A program made the translations under genes and the position numbers. Below the pieces are notes generated by a model. The model had not been told where the DNA came from, made no database searches, and worked only from the letters and a program-made list of their open reading frames with translations. 64,000 nt of DNA from a virus (Duplodnaviria > Caudoviricetes), in the IMG/VR virus record IMGVR_UViG_3300044537_000257, positions 8,277 to 72,276 of that record; one strand, written 5' to 3'. Shown piece after piece: positions 7,816 through 55,336 of this stretch. Numbering within the stretch: the first letter of the stretch is position 1; every line of letters starts with the position of its first letter.

Positions 7816-8232
7816 GTGAAAGAGCTAACTAAGGCGGCCCTTGCGTGGCTAGACGATGAGTATATGAGATACACTAAAATCAATCACGATATTGCAGTGC
7901 GGAAACTAGAAATTGAGCATCCCTGGAAGCCCAACGATGACAATATCGGTGGCGGTCGTTCCAGTGTGATCACGCGGCCGCAAGAAAGCCTGGTATTAAA
8001 ATATGATCAGGATAGGGTAATTAATCGGCTGATTCAGTTACAGCGCGAGGTGGATGCCGCCAAAAGGCATATGGACGCGGAACAGTTAAAAATTTTTGAG
8101 ATGCGCTATATTGGCACCAATTACTATGACTGGGACACAATTGGTAGTCTGTTGCATTATGCGCACACGCCCATTTATCGCAAGCGATATAAATTACTTG
8201 AATTATTGGCCGAAGAAAAGGGAATAATCTAA
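7816..8232 (+). CDS. Late transcription activator (RinA/ArpU-like)
   Basis: DDNIGGGRSS...PQE; C-terminal HTH (MRY...DWDTIG...IYRKR); last early gene before terminase. Confidence 0.8.
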   Translation: MKELTKAALAWLDDEYMRYTKINHDIAVRKLEIEHPWKPNDDNIGGGRSSVITRPQESLVLKYDQDRVINRLIQLQREVDAAKRHMDAEQLKIFEMRYIGTNYYDWDTIGSLLHYAHTPIYRKRYKLLELLAEEKGII

Positions 8233-8288
8233 GTTGGTACTAGAATCGGTAGTTGTACCACTTAAAACCTGCTAAATTAGTATTATAG

Positions 8289-8394
8289 ATAAGTTAGTTT
8301 AAGGATGTCGTTAACCAAAATCTAAAAAAATTCAGTTCAATCGCAAGTCTTAAACTGATTTATTGGGAGCGCCCAGTATTGGGCGTTCCTTTTT
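8289..8394 (+). ncRNA. Candidate late-leader structured RNA (copy 1)
   Basis: 16-bp stem (8289-8304/8348-8363) enclosing a 43-nt core identical to 50506-50548, then a terminator hairpin. Confidence 0.5.
8366..8394 (+). terminator. Intrinsic terminator-like hairpin
   Basis: GGAGCGCCCA-GTAT-TGGGCGTTCC followed by T5. Confidence 0.7.
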
Positions 8395-8536
8395 GCGTAC
8401 GTATGGCTACGTCTGTAGCACCGAGACAAAAATTTTCAGTGAATTAGAACATTGGTTGGCTGATAAGAAGAAACGTGAGCGTCGTGCTAAGAAGCATGGT
8501 GCTTTTAGTTTGGAGAAAAATAAGGAGGAATCAATT

Positions 8537-8806
8537 ATGGATTTTGGAGAAGCGCTTGAAGAATTAAAACGAGGTAATTGTGTTGCGCGTAAAGGTTGGA
8601 ACGGCAAAGGCATCTTCATTAAATTAAAAAAGGGAGAATCTTTGAACACTCCCAATAATCGTTTTAATGAGGTTATGACTCACGACTTCATTTATATTGA
8701 CACGACTGGGCTACGCACGAACAATCCGAATGCACCTATGGATCGAGTTCCATGGTTAGCTAGTCAAACTGACATGCTGGCTGATGACTGGGTCGTAGTC
8801 GAATAA
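8537..8806 (+). CDS. DUF2829-family protein (Tad2-like anti-defence sponge candidate)
   Basis: MDFGEALEELKRGNCVARKGWNGKG...PWLASQTDMLADDW; start reassigned to ATG 8537 after AAGGAGG. Confidence 0.8.
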   Translation: MDFGEALEELKRGNCVARKGWNGKGIFIKLKKGESLNTPNNRFNEVMTHDFIYIDTTGLRTNNPNAPMDRVPWLASQTDMLADDWVVVE

Positions 8807-8845: not shown

Positions 8846-9640
8846 GTGATGACTAACGATAATCAGAAGAAAGCGGCTGTCGATTATGCTGCAGGGATGA
8901 AGTATAAGGATATTGCTGATAAGTATGGTGTATCGCTCAACACGGTTAAGTCGTGGCGCAAGCGTAATGGTTGGTCGCGTGGTGCACCACCGATTAAAAA
9001 GGGTACACCCAAAAACAGTGAGAGGGTGCACCCTAAAAACGTGCCAAAGATTATCGAAGAATCGAATGCTACTGAAAAACAAAAGCTATTTGCACTGTAT
9101 TATTTAGAACGATTCAACGGTACTTGGGCGTATATGAAGGCTTATAAAGTTGATGCGGACATAGCACGAGCAAGCGCCCCGCGATTGTTAGCAAATGTTA
9201 GCGTTAAGACTATGATTGATGAACTCAAGAAAGAACAAGCGGCTGAGTTGCACATGACACAGCTAGATGTTCTTGCTGAGGCAGCCAAGCAAGTTAAGGC
9301 AGATATTGGGGATTATATCGAATTCGGTAGTGCTGACGAACCACTGGTTGATAAGCGCGGTCATAAAATTATTGATTCGAAAACAGGCAAGCAAAAGACC
9401 GCACACTTATCGCATGTTAATTTGCGCAATCAATCCCAAGTTGACACGTCCCTCCTTAAATCGGTGCACATTGGTCGAGATGGCGTCGTTGTTGAAATGT
9501 ATGATAAACAAAAAGCAATGGAAATGTTACTGCGGAATCTGCCTGAAACGATTGTTGATGATGGCAACGACGATGGGTTTATGGATGCGATGGATAAATT
9601 AGGTGATAAGGTCTGGGGTGATGATGATGGTACAGACTAG
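8846..9640 (+). CDS. terS: Terminase small subunit
   Basis: N-terminal HTH ([18 protein letters not shown]), then [17 protein letters not shown]; precedes terL. Confidence 0.85.
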
Positions 9641-14269: not shown

Positions 14270-14373
14270 TCGAGCGATGAAGTTCATCGCTATTTTTACG
14301 CCCTTTTTCCCGTGCTGCAGGGCTAAAAGAACGACCGGAGATTGTCTCCCTAGACGTTAAACTGGAGGGCCTT

Positions 14374-14982
14374 ATGGCAGATGTAGTAGACGAAAAGAAG
14401 GATCAAGTCCAAAAGCCAGCTGAAAATGAAGAAAATAACAATGAATCCACTGAAAATACTGATAATGCGCAGTCAGATGATAACAAAGCGGATAAAATTG
14501 TTGAAAAACTTCAAAAGCGGATTGGCGAAGAACAAGCTAAGAAAAATGAGTATAAGGATCAACTTGATGATGCGTTAAAACGAATTGCCAGATTAGAAAA
14601 GGGTGAAGACCCTGACAAACCAGCACCAAAGGACGAAAAAGATGAACGAATTGCGGCCCTTGAAGCACAGATCAAGCGTCGTGATATCACTGAACAAGCC
14701 CGAGATGTGCTAGTCAGCAGTGGGATGAACGTGCCATCTGATGTGTTAGACCGGCTGGTGTCGGATGACAACAAGGCAACGCTGGCCAACGTTAAATCTT
14801 TTGTGACTTATATCCAATTGGTGCGTGAAGATGCACGCAAAGAACTCTTAGCTGGAACCACGCCGAAGGATGCACCAACCGGCGGTACCACGAAGAAGTT
14901 AAAGGATATGTCTTTAGCTGAGCGTAGTCAGTTAGCATCCGAGGATATGACGCTTTATCAACAATTGCGCCAACAAAAATAG
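14374..14982 (+). CDS. Capsid scaffold protein (DUF4355-like)
   Basis: Acidic coiled-coil protein before MCP; ends LAGTTPK... Confidence 0.85.
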   Translation: MADVVDEKKDQVQKPAENEENNNESTENTDNAQSDDNKADKIVEKLQKRIGEEQAKKNEYKDQLDDALKRIARLEKGEDPDKPAPKDEKDERIAALEAQIKRRDITEQARDVLVSSGMNVPSDVLDRLVSDDNKATLANVKSFVTYIQLVREDARKELLAGTTPKDAPTGGTTKKLKDMSLAERSQLASEDMTLYQQLRQQK

Positions 14983-17211: not shown

Positions 17212-17610
17212 GTGTCTGCTATTAAGTCAATTGATCAAGACCTTTTCGACACGTTATATGCGCTATCTCAGTCTTTAAATTACAAAACTTATGATGTGCG
17301 GCCACCTGAAAGTGCTGTTTATCCGTTTGTACAAATTGGCGACGTGCAACTCGTACCACGAGCGGCTGGTGATCGATTAGTTGGATCATTATTTACCACA
17401 ATCGAATTATTCGGCTGTAGGAAGCAACGAAAGCTTTTGTCGGAAATGACGGAAGCTATTTTTATGCGCTCAATTAATTTGAGACGCACAACGAGTTACG
17501 GTATCGCTGCTAACGTCAAGGGATGCTCAAAGCAAATGATAAAGGACACCTCAGTGCCGAATACAACATTATGGCATAGCATCATCGAATTAGAATACAG
17601 AATTTTATAA
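17212..17610 (+). CDS. Tail terminator / completion protein
   Basis: YDVRPP...YPFVQIGD; position before tail tube gene. Confidence 0.75.
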   Translation: MSAIKSIDQDLFDTLYALSQSLNYKTYDVRPPESAVYPFVQIGDVQLVPRAAGDRLVGSLFTTIELFGCRKQRKLLSEMTEAIFMRSINLRRTTSYGIAANVKGCSKQMIKDTSVPNTTLWHSIIELEYRIL

Positions 17611-24805: not shown

Positions 24806-27800
24806 ATGCAATTATATGTACTCGACCGCGCCAAGAACACTTTGGCCACGACCTCAAGTTTTTATAGCGACAAGCACCATAAAGAGTTGACCGCCGGTGC
24901 ATCGATCTTTGAGTTTACGATTGATAAATCTGACTCAGCCGCCCAGTATATGACGACCGGGAATTACCTAGTGTTCCAGGATGACCGTGGGCGGGCGTGG
25001 TCGTTTACGATTTTGAGCTACGACGAAACGCAGACGACTAAGACTGTTGCCGCCGAAGATGTCAGTATCGAATTGCTTAATAAAGCCATGGACGTCTGGA
25101 ATACTGATCAAGCTTATCCGTTTAGCTATTATTTTGACTTAGTGACAAAAGGCACACCGTGGACACTTGGTGTTAACCAGCTGACCGATTTATCACGTAA
25201 ACTAGTTTACACAGGCCGAGACACTGGCTTAGGCCGATTGCTGTCCGTTTTAAAGGGCTTTGATAATGCGGAGTGTCAGTTTAATATCAAAGTAAAACAA
25301 AACAGTCCTATCGAGTTTACCGTCGACGTTTATAAATCAATCGGCACCGTGCAGGATAATATCCAAATTGTCTATAACAATGAGTTAAATGACATTAAAA
25401 AGACAGAGAGCCGCGCCCAATTTGTTACTGCATTAGCCGGTGTGGGTGGCTTGGTCGAAAATCAAGCAACAACTGATCCTGGGCTGGAGAAACATATTGA
25501 TTTTACTGATATTGACTATAAAGACGATAACTTTGTGTCGCCAAAGGGCGATAAATTTTTACGAGCGGTTACGGCTAACCGAACATTTAATCCAGGGACA
25601 ACCACTTATATTGAGGACTTTTACGACTACGATACACAGAGTAGCCAGGAGCTGCTTAACCGTACGCTGACACAACTTAAGGAGCGCTCAGAACCACAGT
25701 ACACCTACAATGCTGACGTTAAAGTGATTGACCCCACACTGGATATTGGCGATACGGTGACCATTATCGATCACGATTATAACCCAGCACTCTATTTGCA
25801 AGCACGGGTGGCCACGTTGGATAAGTCATACACGGATCCCACGCAAGGCGCGATCACGTTTTGTAATTACCGGGTGCTTAACAGCAACCTATCCGATCAG
25901 CTACGAGCAATGCAAAATATCATTGATCAGCTGCCAACCAGCGCATCAATCAAGGTAATTAACAATAATATTGTGCAGATGATTACTCAAAATGAGGAGC
26001 TTAAAAAGCAAGTCGCCCTATCGTTTGAGTCAGCCAACGGTAAGAGCCGGGTATGGTTTAGCCGATCATCAACCGCGCAAAACGGCGATGTTGCTTTTAT
26101 CAAAAACGCTGACGGCGCCACTGAGATTTGGAAGTTTGTTGAGGGCGCCTGGAAACTGGACACCGGTTTAGCCACATTTGATGACGTTAAAAAAGCCGCG
26201 AGTGCGGCGGCAGATGCTGGCAGTCAGGCAGTTACTGCTGGCCAACAGGCGAGCGCCGCTGGTAGTCAAGCCGCTGTTGTAGGATTGCAGGCAAGTACAG
26301 CCGGAAGCCAAGCAATTTCTGCCGGCAATCAAGCCAGTTTAGCTGACAGTCAAGCTGCTATAGCTGGCAGTCAGGCAGTTACTGCTGGTAGTCAAGCCAG
26401 TTCTGCTGGTAGTCAGGCAGTTGTTGCAGGATTGCAGGCCAGTGCCGCAGGTAGCCAAGCGATTTCTGCTGGTAGTCAGGCCAGTTGGGCCGGTAGTCAA
26501 GCCGCTGTAGCTGGTAAGCAAGCAAGCGCCGCTGGTAGTCAAGCAGTTATTGCTGGTCAACAAGCTAGTACAGCCGGAAGCCAAGCGATTTCTGCTGGTA
26601 GTCAGGCCAGTTGGGCCGGTAGCCAAGCTGCTGTAGCTGGTAAGCAAGCGAGCACTGCTGGCAGTCAGGCAGTTACTGCTGGCCAACAAGCCAGTGCTGC
26701 AGGTGCCGATGCTAAATCAGCTGGAGACTTTGCGGCTAGTGCCGCTAGTCAATCTACAATCGAGACGTCAGCAGCACGATCGACAGCTAATAGTGCGGTG
26801 GATCAAGCTAATTTAGCTGTCTCACAAGCAGGCTTTGCCAATAATGCTGCAGATCAGGCTAAGTCAGCTGCGGCTAGTGCGCAGAGTGATGCTGCCGGTG
26901 CTTTAGGAAAAGCTAGTACAGCAATCACTAATGCTAGTACCGCCATAAACGCGGCCACTGATGCGCAGACTAAGACCAACTCACTGGTCACCAAGGTTGA
27001 CGATATTGCTGGGACAATTAAGACCCTAGCAACTACTGAGACCGTTGACCAGTTGGCAGGTACCGTCGCGACCACTCAAAGCTTAGCGCAGTTTGCGGCT
27101 GACGGTCTCAAGCTCAAGGCAGATACGACCACAGTCGATAAGATCAATGGCACAGTCAACGATCTTAAGGGTGAGCTTGATGTGCAGGCGGATAAGATTG
27201 CCGCCACGGTTACCGCTAGTGATGTGACTGGAATGCTTGGTAATTACGCTACTCAGTCATGGTCTCAGGGGCAGATATCTGCTGCTAAAAATGAGATTTC
27301 CGCGTCGGTTGAGACGGTGCAAACTCAGGTTAAAAACAGTGCGGTTGGCACTAATTTATTAACAGGAACGAGTTCGTCAGAACAGTCATACATGAATGAC
27401 TTTTCAACCGTTCCCGGTTGGATTTATAGTAACTTTCTACAAGGGTCACAACCTGCTGTTAATGTCGGAAGCACCTATACCTACTCGATATATTTAACGA
27501 AATTAACGGGGTCTTTTGCTTTGGGGTATTGGGGATATGACAGCAATAAAAAATATGCTAGATGGTTCCCTAGTCCTATTTATTCTTCATTGGGTAAAGT
27601 TTCATGGACGTTCACGATTCCTAGTGGAATATCTTATATAGTTCCACATGTTGTGCACGCTTCTGATGATTTTACTTGTACAGCAAAAGAAGAAAAACTT
27701 GAAAAAGGGTCCGTAGCTACTGATTGGTGCCTAGCGCCGGAAGATCAGGCGACTGTTGATTGGACTAAATCTCAACTAGATATTAAAGATGGCAAAATTT

Positions 27801-29815
27801 CTGCTGCTGTGACTAGCTTAAAGAGCGATATAACCAACGCCACCGCAGGTATGGCGACACAGACGTGGACACAAGGGAGGCTTGATTTAACGGCTGAGGG
27901 TTTTACCAGCCAGATTAGCAGTGTGCAGACAAATCTAGATAACATGCAAATCGGCGGTCGTAACTATATCTTAAACAGCGGCCAGCCCATTACGATTAAT
28001 GGCGATACTGATCACTTTAAGATACTGTATTATAATTTAACGCCAGGGACTTGGACATTTAGTGCTAACGCCAAATATACTCGTGGCACCGATACCTCAG
28101 TTTTTCTGGCTATTTATTCGGCCGACACAGCAATTGGCTATAATAACGCATCCGTACCAATTGTTAACGGTAAAATCGCTTGGACATTTAAGCCAAACAA
28201 TCCGGCCGGCGTACTGCTATTAATGTACGCTGGTTCAGGGTCTTGGGGGACAACGCCTGGGAAAACGCTGGAAGTCAGCCATCGAAAGCTAGAAAAAGGC
28301 AACAAATCGACAGACTGGTCTCCAGCACCGGAGGATCAAGCTACTGTAGCAGACGTATCTAGCCAATTTACCCAGCTCCAAAACGACATTAATCTCCGCG
28401 TTAAAACGGGTGATTTAGTTAGTCAAATTGATGTTAACGCCAAACGGATTTTACTCGATGGCGCAAGCACCTATATTACAAATACAACTCACATCGACAC
28501 CGGTGTGATTAAAACAGCCATGATCGCTGATGCCGCCATTACAAACGGTAAGATCGCTAATGCGGCGATCGATAATGCTAAAATCGCTGACGCGTCAATC
28601 GACAATGCTAAAATCGCTGATTTAGCTGTTAGCACGGCTCAAATAGCCGACGGCGCTATAACAAATGCCAAGATCGGTAACGCATCGATCACGACGGCAA
28701 AAATCGGCGACGCACAAATTAATAGTGCTAAAATTGGTGCATTAGCCGTAAACACTGCACAAATTGCCAATGGTGCGATCACAACCGCAAAAATCGGTTC
28801 ACTAGCTGTTGGCACGGCTCAAATAGCCGATGGTGCAATCAATAGCGCCAAAATCGCGTCACTGGCTGTAGGCACCGCCCAGATAGCAGATGGTGCAATC
28901 AGCAATGCCAAAATTGGTAAAGCGGCAATCTTTTCTGCGCAAATTGCCGAATTAGCTGTGGGTACCGCCCAGATCGCTGATGCCGCCATCACAAATGGCA
29001 AAATCGCTAATGCGTCAATCGACAATGCTAAAATCGCAAATGCGGCGATCACGGCTGCTAAGATCGCTGATTTAGCCGTAGGTAGCGCACAGATCGCCGA
29101 TGGTGCCATTAGTAGCGCTAAGATAGGTAATGCCGCGATCACATCTGCACAAATTGCCGATGCATCGATTATTGATGCCAAAATTGTTAATTTAGATGGT
29201 AGTAAAATTGTCGCTAACTCGATCACAGCAGATAAGCTAGATGTTAATGCGATTGAAGTTGGGCTAAACACTTACGGGATTGGTTGGCAGATTACGCCGG
29301 CAAGCATTAAATTTTTACCATCTGCCAGCAGCACTAAGGCTAGCTTAATTTTAACCGGTGAAGGCATCATCTTGGGCGATACTACCACCGGTGAAATGCT
29401 GGGAGAAATTACTGGATCACCTTTTGATTTGACCAAAGACACCTGGTTCAATGGATTTAACCTATTGCTTAAATACAACGGTGGTGATTTTGTGCATCTA
29501 GGTCGAGAGAAAGCAGATGGCACCATGAGCAGTAAAATGATCTGGAGTAACGCTGATGAGAGTAGTTTTGGTATTTATTCGGGTTTTAATTTTTACGATC
29601 ATGTGCATTTTAATACTATTGGCCCATTTGATCCTGATGATAATGCGCAAATGCACGTAGTCCGAACGCAGATTGATGGCCATTGGTGTACCGGATTTAT
29701 GGCGCACGACGGGCTTGCTGGCGTGGCATTTGGCGATGGTGGCTGGCTGTATCTTGAGCGAGATAATAAATGGATTGATTTTTGGAACATTGTCAACAAA
29801 ATCGGACTAGCGTGA
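24806..29815 (+). CDS. Tal / tail spike-host recognition protein
   Basis: Prophage-tail N-domain, heptad Ala/Gly/Ser/Gln repeats, two GxN...KLEKG..TDW.PAPED modules, 10-aa repeats. Confidence 0.88.
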   Translation: MQLYVLDRAKNTLATTSSFYSDKHHKELTAGASIFEFTIDKSDSAAQYMTTGNYLVFQDDRGRAWSFTILSYDETQTTKTVAAEDVSIELLNKAMDVWNTDQAYPFSYYFDLVTKGTPWTLGVNQLTDLSRKLVYTGRDTGLGRLLSVLKGFDNAECQFNIKVKQNSPIEFTVDVYKSIGTVQDNIQIVYNNELNDIKKTESRAQFVTALAGVGGLVENQATTDPGLEKHIDFTDIDYKDDNFVSPKGDKFLRAVTANRTFNPGTTTYIEDFYDYDTQSSQELLNRTLTQLKERSEPQYTYNADVKVIDPTLDIGDTVTIIDHDYNPALYLQARVATLDKSYTDPTQGAITFCNYRVLNSNLSDQLRAMQNIIDQLPTSASIKVINNNIVQMITQNEELKKQVALSFESANGKSRVWFSRSSTAQNGDVAFIKNADGATEIWKFVEGAWKLDTGLATFDDVKKAASAAADAGSQAVTAGQQASAAGSQAAVVGLQASTAGSQAISAGNQASLADSQAAIAGSQAVTAGSQASSAGSQAVVAGLQASAAGSQAISAGSQASWAGSQAAVAGKQASAAGSQAVIAGQQASTAGSQAISAGSQASWAGSQAAVAGKQASTAGSQAVTAGQQASAAGADAKSAGDFAASAASQSTIETSAARSTANSAVDQANLAVSQAGFANNAADQAKSAAASAQSDAAGALGKASTAITNASTAINAATDAQTKTNSLVTKVDDIAGTIKTLATTETVDQLAGTVATTQSLAQFAADGLKLKADTTTVDKINGTVNDLKGELDVQADKIAATVTASDVTGMLGNYATQSWSQGQISAAKNEISASVETVQTQVKNSAVGTNLLTGTSSSEQSYMNDFSTVPGWIYSNFLQGSQPAVNVGSTYTYSIYLTKLTGSFALGYWGYDSNKKYARWFPSPIYSSLGKVSWTFTIPSGISYIVPHVVHASDDFTCTAKEEKLEKGSVATDWCLAPEDQATVDWTKSQLDIKDGKISAAVTSLKSDITNATAGMATQTWTQGRLDLTAEGFTSQISSVQTNLDNMQIGGRNYILNSGQPITINGDTDHFKILYYNLTPGTWTFSANAKYTRGTDTSVFLAIYSADTAIGYNNASVPIVNGKIAWTFKPNNPAGVLLLMYAGSGSWGTTPGKTLEVSHRKLEKGNKSTDWSPAPEDQATVADVSSQFTQLQNDINLRVKTGDLVSQIDVNAKRILLDGASTYITNTTHIDTGVIKTAMIADAAITNGKIANAAIDNAKIADASIDNAKIADLAVSTAQIADGAITNAKIGNASITTAKIGDAQINSAKIGALAVNTAQIANGAITTAKIGSLAVGTAQIADGAINSAKIASLAVGTAQIADGAISNAKIGKAAIFSAQIAELAVGTAQIADAAITNGKIANASIDNAKIANAAITAAKIADLAVGSAQIADGAISSAKIGNAAITSAQIADASIIDAKIVNLDGSKIVANSITADKLDVNAIEVGLNTYGIGWQITPASIKFLPSASSTKASLILTGEGIILGDTTTGEMLGEITGSPFDLTKDTWFNGFNLLLKYNGGDFVHLGREKADGTMSSKMIWSNADESSFGIYSGFNFYDHVHFNTIGPFDPDDNAQMHVVRTQIDGHWCTGFMAHDGLAGVAFGDGGWLYLERDNKWIDFWNIVNKIGLA
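26191..26720 (+). repeat. 21-nt (7-aa) tandem repeat array in Tal
   Basis: SxAGSQA/VxAGxQA units; 44-nt exact repeat at 26453 and 26579 (126-nt period). Confidence 0.85.
28510..29240 (+). repeat. 30-nt (10-aa) degenerate repeat array in Tal
   Basis: (A/S)I(T/D)xAKIADxx / LAVGTAQIAD units, over 20 copies. Confidence 0.85.
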
Positions 29816-48522: not shown

Positions 48523-49905
48523 ATGCAAGCAACACTACACCCATATCAACGGTATTCAGCAACTTGGATCGAGGAACATCCATACTGCGCCTTACTGTTA
48601 GATATGGGACTTTAACTAGGCAAAACCTTATCCACGTTGACGGCACTGCACGAATTGATGAAAGATTTTGAGTTGATCGATAAAACACTAGTGATCGCAC
48701 CACTTAAAGTTGCTATCGAGACTTGGCCGGCCGAGCTTAAAAAGTGGGACGCCTTCCATGATTTCTCCTGTTCCGTGATCACGGGTAAACCCGCCAAACG
48801 ATTAGCTGCTTTAGACCAACCCGCCGACCTTTATATCATTAACCGAGAAAATGTAGTGTGGTTGGCCGAACTTTATAAAAAGCAGTGGCCATTTAAAACA
48901 GTGGTGATCGATGAGCTATCCAGCTTTAAATCTAGCAAGTCCAAGCGGTTTAAAGCTTTACGTAAGGTTCGACCATTAATGGATCGCGTGATTGGGCTAA
49001 CAGGGACACCAGCGCCTAACACCTTAATGGATCTTTGGCCACAAATCTATTTATTGGATGGTGGCCAACGTTTAGGCAAGACGATCACGGCATATCGCAA
49101 TCGATATTTTTATCCGGCATCCTCATCGGGTCATGTTGTTTACAGTTGGGCGCTTAAGCCCGGCGCCGAGGATGAGATCTATAATGCCATCGCTGATATT
49201 TGTGTCAGCATGAAGGCCAAGGACTATTTAAAATTGCCGCAGCGGATTAATCAGACGATAATGGTGACCTTAAAACCTAAAGAGCGACAACAATACGACG
49301 AGCTGGAAAAGTCCTTAGTATTGGAGTTAAACGGGACTGAGGTCATGGCCGCCAATGCGGCAGTTTTAACCAATAAATTACTGCAAATGGCTAACGGTGC
49401 AATTTATGATGATGACCATAAAGTCCAATTGATCCACAACGCCAAGTTAGATGCTTTGGAGCAAATTATCGAGGAGGCAAATGGTCAGTCGGTGTTAGTG
49501 TTTTACAATTATCAGCATGATCTAGATCGGATCAAGCAGCGACTGCCACTAGCCCATAAATTGGAAACCGGCGATGTCGAAAAGTGGAACCACGGTGAGA
49601 TCCCAATCTTATTAGCCCACCCGCAGTCATCGGGACACGGGCTTAACTTACAGCAGGGTGGCCACATTATTGTCTGGTTTAGCTTGACATGGTCTTTAGA
49701 GTATTATCAACAGGCTAATGCCAGGTTAGACCGACAAGGCCAAACCAAGCCCGTGACTGTTTACCATCTAGTCACCAAGGGCACCCTAGACGAAAGAGTA
49801 ATGACCGTTTTACAAAGCAAAGCCGCTGGCCAAGATGAGCTTTTAAACGCTGTCAAAGCCAGGATTAAATCAATTAGGGGTGAAATAGGTGGAAAAATTA
49901 AGTAA
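48523..49905 (+). pseudogene. SNF2-like helicase with in-frame stop in Walker A
   Basis: MQATLHPYQ...LDMGL-TAA(48613)-LGKT...IDE...GHGLNLQ; 6 extra nt relative to DMGLGKT. Confidence 0.85.
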
Positions 49906-50413
49906 AGAGCAGTTAAGTATCATCACTTCAGAGGTTATTAAAAATTTGGACCACGAGAAACGTAAACGGGTGACTGCTGAAAAAGATTCACGTTTACGTA
50001 ACACACGGATTTTAGTGCGATCATACCCCAAGCTTAAAGCGCATACGGCAACACAGCCGGAGGTGTTTCTTGATGACGATATCTATGAGATGATCACCGG
50101 TGTCAAAATCAGCGATCACGAACTCGCAAAATATCACATTAAAACCAAGCATTTGCTGGAGTATGTCGATACAATTTTAGCTGCCTATAAACAGGTTTGT
50201 CTTGGTGGTGACGAGAGTGATAAGCGTCGGTGGCAGATTATGTATGACACGTATTTAAGCGATCATCGTTTACGTATGGCGGATCAAGCAAATAGGTGGA
50301 ATGTAGACAAAAGCACGATTAGCCGGGAGTGCGCAAAAGCAATCCAAGAGTTATCGGTAACCATGTTTGGGATAGCGGGGTTAGCTGATTTTTTATCTGA
50401 CTGGATCGCCTAG
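49889..50413 (+). CDS. Late transcription regulator (sigma region-4-like C-terminus)
   Basis: RLRNTRILVRSY...NVDKSTISRE; precedes late promoter. Confidence 0.7.
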   Translation: MEKLSKEQLSIITSEVIKNLDHEKRKRVTAEKDSRLRNTRILVRSYPKLKAHTATQPEVFLDDDIYEMITGVKISDHELAKYHIKTKHLLEYVDTILAAYKQVCLGGDESDKRRWQIMYDTYLSDHRLRMADQANRWNVDKSTISRECAKAIQELSVTMFGIAGLADFLSDWIA

Positions 50414-50493
50414 CCCATGCAACAAATCCGCACCCAAATGCGTATGAATAAATGATATTATGATATTGTCAAAATAAACTGATGACAGGGCTA

Positions 50494-50643
50494 GCTTAAC
50501 TAAGGATGTCGTTAACCAAAATCTAAAAAAATTCAGTTCAATCGCAAGCTTTAGTCAAGCAAGTCGAGTCCCTCCAAACCAATTTTTGACACAGTTTAAT
50601 TATAGTTGCCGCTTAGGAGCGTCCAGTAATGGGCGTTCTTTTT
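50494..50643 (+). ncRNA. Candidate late-leader structured RNA (copy 2)
   Basis: 11/12-bp stem (50494-50505/50549-50560) around the same 43-nt core; terminator at 50615-50643. Confidence 0.5.
50615..50643 (+). terminator. Intrinsic terminator-like hairpin
   Basis: AGGAGCGTCCA-GTAA-TGGGCGTTCTT then TTT; homologous to 8366..8394. Confidence 0.7.
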
Positions 50644-50676
50644 ATACATATTTAGCCAGAAAGCGAGGTGGTAAGA

Positions 50677-51102
50677 GTGGGACTAACGGTTAAACAGCAA
50701 AAATTTATCGACGCTTTTATTGAGCAGGGTAATGCCACCCAAGCCGCTATCAGCGCTGGCTACAGTAAAAAAACAGCAGCACAACAGGGCGCAGAAAACC
50801 TTAAAAAACCTTATGTTAAGGCTGCAATCGATGATAGGATGGCTAAAATTGAGTCGGACAAGGTTGCCGGCCAAAAAGAAGTTATGGAATATCTGACTAG
50901 GGTATTGCGCGGCAAAGAAACCGAGACAGTGGTCACGCCTAAGGGCTTAGTTATTGATGATGTACCGCCAAAAATATCGGACCGGAACAAAGCAGCGGAA
51001 TTGATCGGTAAGCGACACCAGATGTGGACTGATAATGTTAATGTCAATTCCGGTGATATCAAGATTACAATTGGCGGAGATGATAAAAATGGCATTGATT
51101 GA
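50677..51102 (+). CDS. terS: Terminase small subunit (Terminase_2)
   Basis: LTVKQQKFIDAFIEQGNATQAAISAGYSKKTA. Confidence 0.93.
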   Translation: MGLTVKQQKFIDAFIEQGNATQAAISAGYSKKTAAQQGAENLKKPYVKAAIDDRMAKIESDKVAGQKEVMEYLTRVLRGKETETVVTPKGLVIDDVPPKISDRNKAAELIGKRHQMWTDNVNVNSGDIKITIGGDDKNGID

Positions 51103-54607: not shown

Positions 54608-54724
54608 AAATAGCTAGCACCTGTCAAAAAACGATGAGTGCTATTTTTACGCCCTTTTTCCCGTGCTGCAGGGCTAAAAGAACGACCGGAGATTGTCTCC
54701 CTAGACGTTAAACTGGAGGGCCTT

Positions 54725-55336
54725 ATGGCAGAACTGAACGAAACAAACAACCAAAAGCCAATTGAAAATGAAGAAAATAACAATGAAACCGTAGATACAA
54801 CTGCTGCAGAAGTTGAAAATCATCAAGAAACTGATGATAAAGCGGATAAAATTGTTGAAAAACTTCAAAAACGGATTGGCGAAGAACAAGCTAAGAAGAA
54901 TGAGTATAAGGATCAGCTTAATGATGCGCTAACTCGTATCGCAAAGCTTGAAAAGGGTGAAGACCCTGATAAACCAGCACCAAAAGACGAAAAGGATGAA
55001 CGAATTGCGGCCCTTGAAGCACAGATCAAGCGTCGTGATATCACTGAACAAGCCCGCGATGTGCTAGTTAGCAGTGGGATGAACGTGCCATCTGATGTGT
55101 TGGACCGGCTTGTGTCGGATGACAACAAAGCAACGCTGGCCAACGTTAAATCTTTTGTGACTTATATCCAATTGGTGCGTGAAGATGCACGCAAAGAACT
55201 CTTAGCTGGGACCACGCCTAAGGATGCACCAACCGGCGGCACCACTAAGAAGTTAAAGGATATGTCTTTAGCTGAGCGTAGTCAGTTAGCATCCGAGGAT
55301 ATGGCGCTTTATCAACAATTGCGCCAACAAAAATAG
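54725..55336 (+). CDS. Capsid scaffold protein
   Basis: Near-identical to 14374..14982 after the N-terminus. Confidence 0.88.
   Translation: MAELNETNNQKPIENEENNNETVDTTAAEVENHQETDDKADKIVEKLQKRIGEEQAKKNEYKDQLNDALTRIAKLEKGEDPDKPAPKDEKDERIAALEAQIKRRDITEQARDVLVSSGMNVPSDVLDRLVSDDNKATLANVKSFVTYIQLVREDARKELLAGTTPKDAPTGGTTKKLKDMSLAERSQLASEDMALYQQLRQQK

Follow-up and report, generated by a model that had tools for sequence, protein, structure and literature searches.

Evidence for a structured RNA hairpin in the late-operon leaders of Loigolactobacillus-type phages

Two late control regions in one viral record

The window, by which the whole analysed stretch of 64,000 nucleotides is meant, forms part of a 72-kb IMG/VR record with two prophages. 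In each of these, the hairpin described here is found between a gene in the position of the late activator and the first genes of the late operon, in regions that comprise the following features.

Prophage 1 (hairpin copy 1)
7816-8232, plus strand: late activator gene of the RinA family (TIGR01636 phage_rinA, E 5.9e-14, 52 bits against a cut-off of 31.9; phrog_36 transcriptional regulator)
8236-8259, plus strand: inverted repeat GGTAC..GTACC directly after the rinA stop codon, a probable RinA binding site
8270-8286, plus strand: extended -10-like TGCTAAATT followed by the hexamer TATTAT, a putative late promoter core with a predicted start at ~8285
8288-8364, plus strand: hairpin RNA (folds, RNAalifold consensus, pair counts)
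8300-8347, plus strand: 48-nt block identical to that of copy 2 (pattern search, alignment, repeat finder)
8365-8394, plus strand: intrinsic terminator with an 11-bp stem, 7 GC pairs and T5
8395-8404, plus strand: TACATA/TACGTA motif, in copy 1 of the form GCGTACGTAT, 0-3 nt past the T-run
8537-8806, plus strand: Tad2-like (DUF2829) gene, the first gene after the terminator (PF11195, E 1.2e-23)
8846-9640, plus strand: terS (PF03592 Terminase_2, E 6.5e-30)

Prophage 2 (hairpin copy 2)
49889-50413, plus strand: gene in the activator position (phrog_1558, function unannotated, E 3.3e-43)
50453-50469, plus strand: tandem extended -10-like motifs TGATATTAT and TGATATTGT (sequence)
50489-50565, plus strand: hairpin RNA with its core stem at 50494-50560 (folds, RNAalifold, pair counts)
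50501-50548, plus strand: 48-nt block identical to that of copy 1
50566-50615, plus strand: extra module of ~50 nt with the conserved CCTCC..CCAATTTTTGACA, between hairpin and terminator
50616-50643, plus strand: intrinsic terminator, homologous to 8365-8394 (fold, sequence)
50645-50651: TACATA/TACGTA motif, 0-3 nt past the T-run
50668-51102, plus strand: terS (PF03592, E 2.9e-34), with its start codon 24 nt past the T-run

The genes on either side of the hairpin had been described as dissimilar between the prophages in the original prediction, and this has been upheld, as the two activators are dissimilar by BLASTP and the terS proteins have only a weak match of 24 residues in common, though both belong to Pfam Terminase_2. 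For the phrog_1558 gene of prophage 2, no Pfam or NCBIfam match has been obtained. A homologous terminator had further been expected ahead of the terminase genes of both prophages; the homology of the terminators stands, but the next gene in copy 1 is the Tad2-like gene and not terS, and a further 140 nt lie between it and the terminator. A Tad2-like anti-Thoeris gene between leader terminator and terS has been seen in prophage 1 only, where a second terminator-like hairpin (8477-8504) precedes it.

The two prophages share their head/tail (morphogenesis) genes at 90-94% DNA identity, together with a second exact intergenic block of 93 nt. This block (14289-14381 and 54640-54732), which both late operons contain ahead of the gene with its ATG at 14375, begins in prophage 1 within the T-run of a terminator-like hairpin (14273-14296) and could represent another conserved RNA or control element. 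Long in-frame tandem repeats have also been noticed in late structural genes of prophage 1 (26195-26745 and 28514-29195), with 17 copies of a 21-nt period and with periods of 30 nt and 120 nt.

Fold, covariation and distribution of the hairpin

The element was noticed through a 43-mer reported as 100% identical at two sites, which has been borne out, as 8305-8347 and 50506-50548, each on the plus strand, are its only two exact occurrences in the window, against a chance expectation of 0 (100 shuffles). Alignment and a repeat finder have even extended the exact identity to 48 nt (TAAGG plus the 43-mer, 8300-8347 = 50501-50548). Because the two prophages share morphogenesis genes at 90-94% as well as the 93-nt block, the 48-nt identity inside the window is by itself no strong evidence, and since it is thus less striking than first thought, the case for a hairpin family has been built on the 13 variants introduced below.

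Folding with ViennaRNA has returned a single long hairpin for each copy, with -14.7 kcal/mol and z = -4.0 for copy 1 (8289-8363) and -10.1 kcal/mol and z = -2.2 for copy 2 (50494-50560), and the arms pair as previously quoted, with 16/16 positions in copy 1 (three of them G-U) and 11/12 in copy 2. An extra closing G-U pair in copy 1 and four further pairs past an A.A mismatch in copy 2 have been added by RNAalifold, which extends the hairpins to 8288-8364 and 50489-50565, that is, to a length of ~77 nt with an imperfect helix of ~23 bp. Both copies are built in the same order from a lower stem, which differs in sequence, an internal loop, two to three short helices and an A-rich apical loop of 19-21 nt; in copy 1, the lower stem comprises 17 bp and the upper helices are two of 3 bp each. 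The 43 nt can consequently not be kept as the unpaired loop for which they had been taken, as their lower part forms two short helices and the apical loop proper amounts to only ~19-21 nt.

The pairing has been examined for covariation in a 12-sequence alignment, with 500 shuffles and with slid controls, in which the partner was shifted by 1-3 columns. In this alignment, 96.4% of the cells pair, a value that falls to 30-60% in the slid controls, and the covariation score was reached by 0/500 shuffles. The RNAalifold consensus holds 23 pairs, 11 of which show compensatory double-sided changes. One conserved pair in the upper part is U-A in five sequences and C-G in seven, and two variants (L097 and L101) possess wholly different lower stems in which the pairing is kept. 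G-U combinations fill dozens of cells of the RNAalifold alignment and A-C combinations only 3; because G-U is frequent and A-C rare, the pairing of the hairpin makes sense only as RNA of the plus strand. Compensatory changes are likewise present in the stem of the terminator (GCGCCC/GGGCGU vs GCAUCC/GGAUGU in L090/L093/L098). The predicted conserved, structured RNA with covarying stems has thereby been corroborated by the 11 compensatory pairs, for the plus strand only, and we regard a genuine structured RNA in the late leader as very probable.

Pattern scans and gene-anchored searches have yielded 13 distinct versions of the hairpin. These are copy 1, copy 2, the copy-2-like L001, L019 (= L007) from Loigolactobacillus jiayinensis (NZ_RHOF01000029), L090 (= L092) as a second, more divergent copy in the same L. 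jiayinensis genome, L091 and L101 from IMG/VR, and L093-L098 from a single metagenome project. Among 51 genome matches of the degenerate and exact pattern scans, one has proven real (L. jiayinensis), and the remaining variants come from viral and metagenome scans; a terminator-motif scan has revealed no new variants, and a BLASTN search of 50,697 phage records with the element has given no match, a result in which the low-complexity filter may hide matches. With a covariance model (R1), the element has been detected in 1/8 species genomes of the genus and in 1/151 sampled Lactobacillaceae genomes, and BLAST of 401 Lactobacillaceae genomes has found it in the L. jiayinensis genome only, in two copies; weak BLAST matches in Lactobacillaceae genomes are located inside genes and have been dismissed as chance. 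The L. jiayinensis genome further contains a very long type II CRISPR array beside a short Cas9 (L114, G001:C33, ~60.8-66.9 kb), with >90 matching repeat positions at a 65-66-nt period.

That the element belongs to no known RNA family, as stated from the outset, agrees with a search of Rfam 15, which has given 0 matches in the whole window. Nothing credible for the hairpin has appeared in Rfam at the gathering threshold or at E up to 10, the best sub-threshold match being CyaR with 20.6 bits vs 47 (E 0.23). The hairpin is an RNA family of Loigolactobacillus-type phages that is absent from Rfam and previously uncatalogued, and this family is genuine but narrow, with 13 variants from one genus plus metagenomes. 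As the family is this small, some of the conservation in sequence may be due to a recent common origin.

The core had been predicted as invariant, which does not hold in the wider family, where two core types, A (as in the window) and B (GGACGUAG ... CGUUUCAAUCGCGAG), and a hybrid (L097) are distinguished. The length of the A-run in the core ranges from 5 to 8, and the blocks GUNGUUAACCAAAA and UUCAAUCGC are invariant across the variants. Two other explanations of parts of the core have been discarded: a leader peptide (MSLTKI), the ATG of which is ACG in all type-B variants, so that its start is not conserved, and a tRNA-like origin of UUCAAUC, for which neither Rfam RF00005 nor ARAGORN has given a tRNA model match.

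Surroundings of the hairpin and the leaders of related phages

Five activator types precede the hairpin, two of them RinA, two ArpU and one phrog_1558, and the following variants have been assigned to them.

RinA type of the copy-1 kind: copy 1, L097, L101
Second RinA type: L090, L093
ArpU type: L019, L094
Other ArpU type: L091, L096
phrog_1558 type: copy 2, L001

The ArpU identification has been made with TIGR01637/phrog_248, for which the L019 protein scores below and the L091 protein above the NCBIfam curated cut-off. Each of the five types is followed, directly after its stop codon, by a sequence of its own, and in four of the five this includes clear repeat sets, which are candidate binding sites (GGTAC..GTACC; AAATGGGAGTA twice; CCGAAC three times; and a set of the copy-2 type). 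The GGTAC..GTACC box is also present after the homologous rinA genes of L097, L101, L102 and the Latilactobacillus (sakei) phage TMW 1.1397 P1. The layout is that of an Ltr-type late control region, as the slot has a gene of the Ltr activator family on one side and the first gene for packaging or late functions on the other, activator-specific repeats are found in it, and an intrinsic terminator is located in the intergenic region.

A promoter-like motif, TGnTAnnWT, follows ~13-20 nt past the activator-specific sequence in 12/13 variants, and in 10/13 it stands at a fixed distance of -30 to -32 from the core. Because its position relative to the core is fixed in these ten variants, the stem would begin 2-4 nt past the putative start site; copy 2, L001 and L101 have ~20-25 nt ahead of the stem. 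On the other side of the hairpin, the terminator at 8365-8394 is the best terminator-like site in 20 kb and is homologous in most variants, with two terminator types overall and a spacing between hairpin and terminator of 1 to ~55 nt. The first late gene is terS, a small conserved ORF or the Tad2-like gene (copy 1), with at least four kinds in all, and its start codon follows the T-run within 22-35 nt in most variants. As this interval is too short to accommodate a standard promoter, late transcription apparently must cross the terminator. The expectation that the element heads both late operons is met by this position after the promoter-like motif and before the homologous terminator.

The TACATA/TACGTA motif behind the T-run, a possible site of transcription start or of processing, has been found in 10/13 variants and in phage TMW 1.1397 P1 (OP455938 = L104); it is absent from L094 and has the form TACATAA in L101, and the available sequence of L097 ends at the T-run. 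The ~50-nt CCTCC..CCAATTTTTGACA module is limited to copy 2, L001 and L101 (L101:1677-1722) and contains an anti-SD-like CCUCC and a perfect TTGACA. A role of this TTGACA as a -35 element has been rejected on inspection, as no consistent -10 occurs at 16-18 nt in the three carriers.

Related phages carry other RNAs at the same place. The hairpin that follows the same RinA box and the same TTAAATTAGTATTAT in phage TMW 1.1397 P1 is a different one; behind it come a tRNA-Leu-like fold and a terminator, and then TACGTA ahead of the first late gene. The tRNA-Leu-like sequence (L104:1735-1815), with a 7-bp acceptor stem, a Leu-type D arm and a T arm with UGCAAAU, is called by neither ARAGORN nor Rfam. 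In Streptococcus phage Javan199 (L105), a box and a -10 motif are followed by hairpins and a tRNA-Lys(UUU), and the terminator touches the ribosome-binding site of terS; the tRNA (L105:1876-1948) is placed in ~600 nt without annotated genes between a RinA-like gene and terS. In S. aureus phage 80alpha (L107:1722-1907), direct repeats are followed 20 nt on by TATTATGATAGTGT, which is nearly identical to the tandem -10-like motif of copy 2, then by a hairpin, a terminator and the TACATA-like GCGTATAG at the published late 5' end. From the position of TATTATGATAGTGT 20 nt past the RinA repeats, it follows that the RinA-dependent promoter may lie ~150 nt upstream of this published 5' end. A further relative, L102, combines a 53%-identical RinA and the same box with a short terminator only, after which a perfect extended -10 (TGTGATATAAT) precedes a non-terS gene (L102:1925-2075), and thus holds the same parts in a different arrangement. 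Judged by sequence comparison, the activator site, the -10 motif, some 5' hairpin and the terminator appear as the constant features of these leaders, and the RNA between them as exchangeable.

Regarding known systems, the closest descriptions concern the ltr-terS region of phi11, 80alpha, phi55 and phiFL2A. For phi11/80alpha, a terminator is present between rinA and terS, the RinA-dependent 5' end has been mapped 23-24 nt before terS, and RinA binding needed DNA >155 bp upstream of this mapped end, which surprised the authors (PMC3152322). In S. aureus phages, read-through from a promoter further upstream has been found to be blocked unless the activator is present, and the intergenic region is nearly identical across phages with different activators, except for the activator-adjacent repeats (PMC3753634). 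The likeness to the window extends to the succession of activator gene, phage-specific repeats, non-coding stretch with terminator and terS, and to a non-coding stretch that is common to phages with different activators. The papers, however, treat this stretch as DNA, namely as activator-gene terminator plus terS promoter, a leader RNA being described in neither of them (PMC3152322, PMC3753634), and the hairpin sequence of the window is absent from 80alpha.

The late switch of lambda (pR' - 6S RNA - tR' with Q) resembles the present regions in the regulator gene directly upstream, in the short terminated transcript before the late genes and in late expression that requires the crossing of a terminator; in contrast, Q binds DNA and needs no RNA structure, and the 6S RNA has no counterpart of the hairpin. 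For RinA and ArpU, no movement along with RNA polymerase is known. A structured RNA after the promoter and before the terminators of a long mobile-element operon is also the arrangement of HK022 put, Bacillus EAR, Tn916 canT and pLS20 conAn2, which have been reviewed as RNA-only antiterminators that occur in part in Gram-positive mobile elements (PMC11658703). A single 77-nt hairpin is found here, whereas put has two stem-loops and EAR and canT measure ~120 nt and >340 nt, and the Rfam search has shown no similarity to put or other described antiterminator RNAs. The cargo of Javan199 (tRNA-Lys) and TMW 1.1397 P1 (tRNA-like fold) shares slot, promoter type and downstream terminator with the hairpin, which itself is not tRNA-like, without ARAGORN or Rfam tRNA match.

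Possible roles of the hairpin

We prefer to read the hairpin as a 5'-proximal, exchangeable 'cargo' RNA module of the late-operon leader, the apex of which binds a constant partner and the terminator of which is crossed by an activator- or promoter-linked mechanism, a reading in which our confidence and our doubt are about balanced. The late genes of temperate Loigolactobacillus-type phages would be switched on by RinA/ArpU-type (Ltr) activators, and an extended -10 promoter beside the binding repeats of the activator would start transcription 2-4 nt ahead of the stem. Polymerases that stop at the terminator would release a small RNA of ~105 nt (~160 nt for copy 2), and those that pass it would make late mRNA with the hairpin at the 5' end. 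For the conserved apex (GUUAACCAAAA ... UUCAAUCGC around the A-run), binding to a single constant partner is probable, with a host factor as the likeliest candidate; no such partner has been found. The crossing of the terminator would more likely be tied to the activator or the promoter than to the hairpin. Across the variants, five activator genes, two terminator types and no fewer than four kinds of first late gene occur together with the hairpin. It has been read as exchangeable cargo because its place is taken by a tRNA, a tRNA-like RNA or some other hairpin in relatives that share the promoter and the leader terminator. As the 5' end of phi11/80alpha is downstream of the terminator and the corresponding position here has a conserved TACATA-like motif, the late mRNA might instead start past the terminator, in which case the hairpin might be a separate small-RNA unit or the 3' end of an early transcript.

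A self-sufficient attenuator or antiterminator is unlikely. The attenuator that had been suggested for the element has been given up, since no alternative pairing with the terminator is seen and the spacing between the two varies from 1 to ~55 nt; a riboswitch, T-box or classical attenuator has been rejected on inspection, with no complement of the terminator 5' arm in the hairpin, separate folds and no T-box match. Antitermination in cis, of the put/EAR/canT kind, would require that the nascent hairpin binds RNA polymerase or a Nus factor and thereby resists the leader terminator and the weaker terminators of the late operon. The hairpin is always found at the extreme 5' end, with the putative promoter before it and the terminator after it, and in a constant orientation; its apex, conserved and single-stranded, does not depend on the activator that a phage has, as expected if the partner were as constant as RNA polymerase; a strong terminator has to be crossed, a few conserved terminator-like hairpins exist inside both late operons (e.g., at 17432 and 57768), and RNA-only precedents are known from Gram-positive mobile elements (PMC11658703). 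We nevertheless judge this mechanism improbable, as TMW 1.1397 P1, L102 and 80alpha keep promoter and leader terminator without the hairpin, so that read-through is not generally hairpin-dependent, and as early transcripts through the activator gene would carry the hairpin too and make the activator pointless, whereas in S. aureus phages upstream read-through is blocked without it (PMC3152322, PMC3753634); a resemblance to put or other Rfam antitermination RNAs is also missing. The more specific version, in which a compact cis RNA of ~77 nt docks on host RNA polymerase or a bound factor and lets only late-promoter transcripts cross the leader terminator, is likewise improbable in our estimation. 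If true, it would provide a Gram-positive single-hairpin counterpart of HK022 put and account for the binding of RinA-type activators >150 bp ahead of the late 5' end that has been mapped.

Stem-loops at the 5' terminus are known to stabilise mRNAs in Firmicutes, and an element of RNA stability or processing, be it a 5' stem-loop against RNase J, a 3' stabiliser of the early rinA transcript or an RNase III site, would fit a stem that starts 2-4 nt past the putative start site in 10/13 variants, an imperfect helix of ~23 bp and the hairpins that 80alpha, TMW 1.1397 P1 and Javan199 also have right after the same promoter motif. For such a function the stem alone would suffice, which leaves the near-invariant apex of 30-plus nt unexplained, and in copy 2, L001 and L101 the ~20-25 nt before the stem do not suit it, so that we see only a small chance for it. 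The promoter-like motif and terminator of its own would equally suit an anti-defence or decoy RNA acting in trans, for example as an anti-CRISPR repeat mimic, a pseudo-antitoxin or a binder of the tRNA-Lys anticodon loop, as would the Tad2 anti-Thoeris gene that adjoins in prophage 1 and the tRNA-Lys in the slot of Javan199, with the UUU anticodon loop of which the A-run could, on inspection, pair. This role appears distinctly unlikely to us, given that the A-run varies in length from 5 to 8, that the loop has no antisense target within the window, that late expression is poor timing for anti-CRISPR action, and that a comparison covering three type II CRISPR repeats from genomes of Loigolactobacillus, the host genus, has shown no resemblance; these scored no better than shuffled repeats (p 0.13-0.9), and the repeat mimic has been dropped. 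Least credible of all is a DNA site for factor binding or bending, or a recent recombination patch between mosaic prophages. The prophages do share other blocks at 90-100% identity, and the core is rich in A-tracts and contains the palindrome GTTAAC, but 11 pairs with compensatory changes and G-U confined to one strand speak for RNA, the position relative to downstream features shifts by ~55 bp between the copies, and among the 13 variants the element is kept even where its flanks are unrelated. An IHF-type DNA site in particular has been discarded, with no consensus match by eye.

The control of late genes in Gram-positive temperate phages has been described as simple activation by RinA/ArpU-type proteins, and in these phages a strong terminator nevertheless separates the site of the activator from the late genes. 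The hairpin is one more structured leader with a built-in terminator that heads a Gram-positive phage late operon, a class that is itself not new. It constitutes a new RNA family for Rfam, the narrow distribution of which limits its immediate impact. As far as the sequences allow, it may be taken as a clean, compact and well-covarying example in which the stretch after the activator is a transcribed, modular RNA slot, and it is a small, tractable RNA with which the layout of late leaders can be tested. If this layout has been read correctly, late transcription in a large group of phages would depend on the passage of a terminator, and the published RinA data would have to be reinterpreted.
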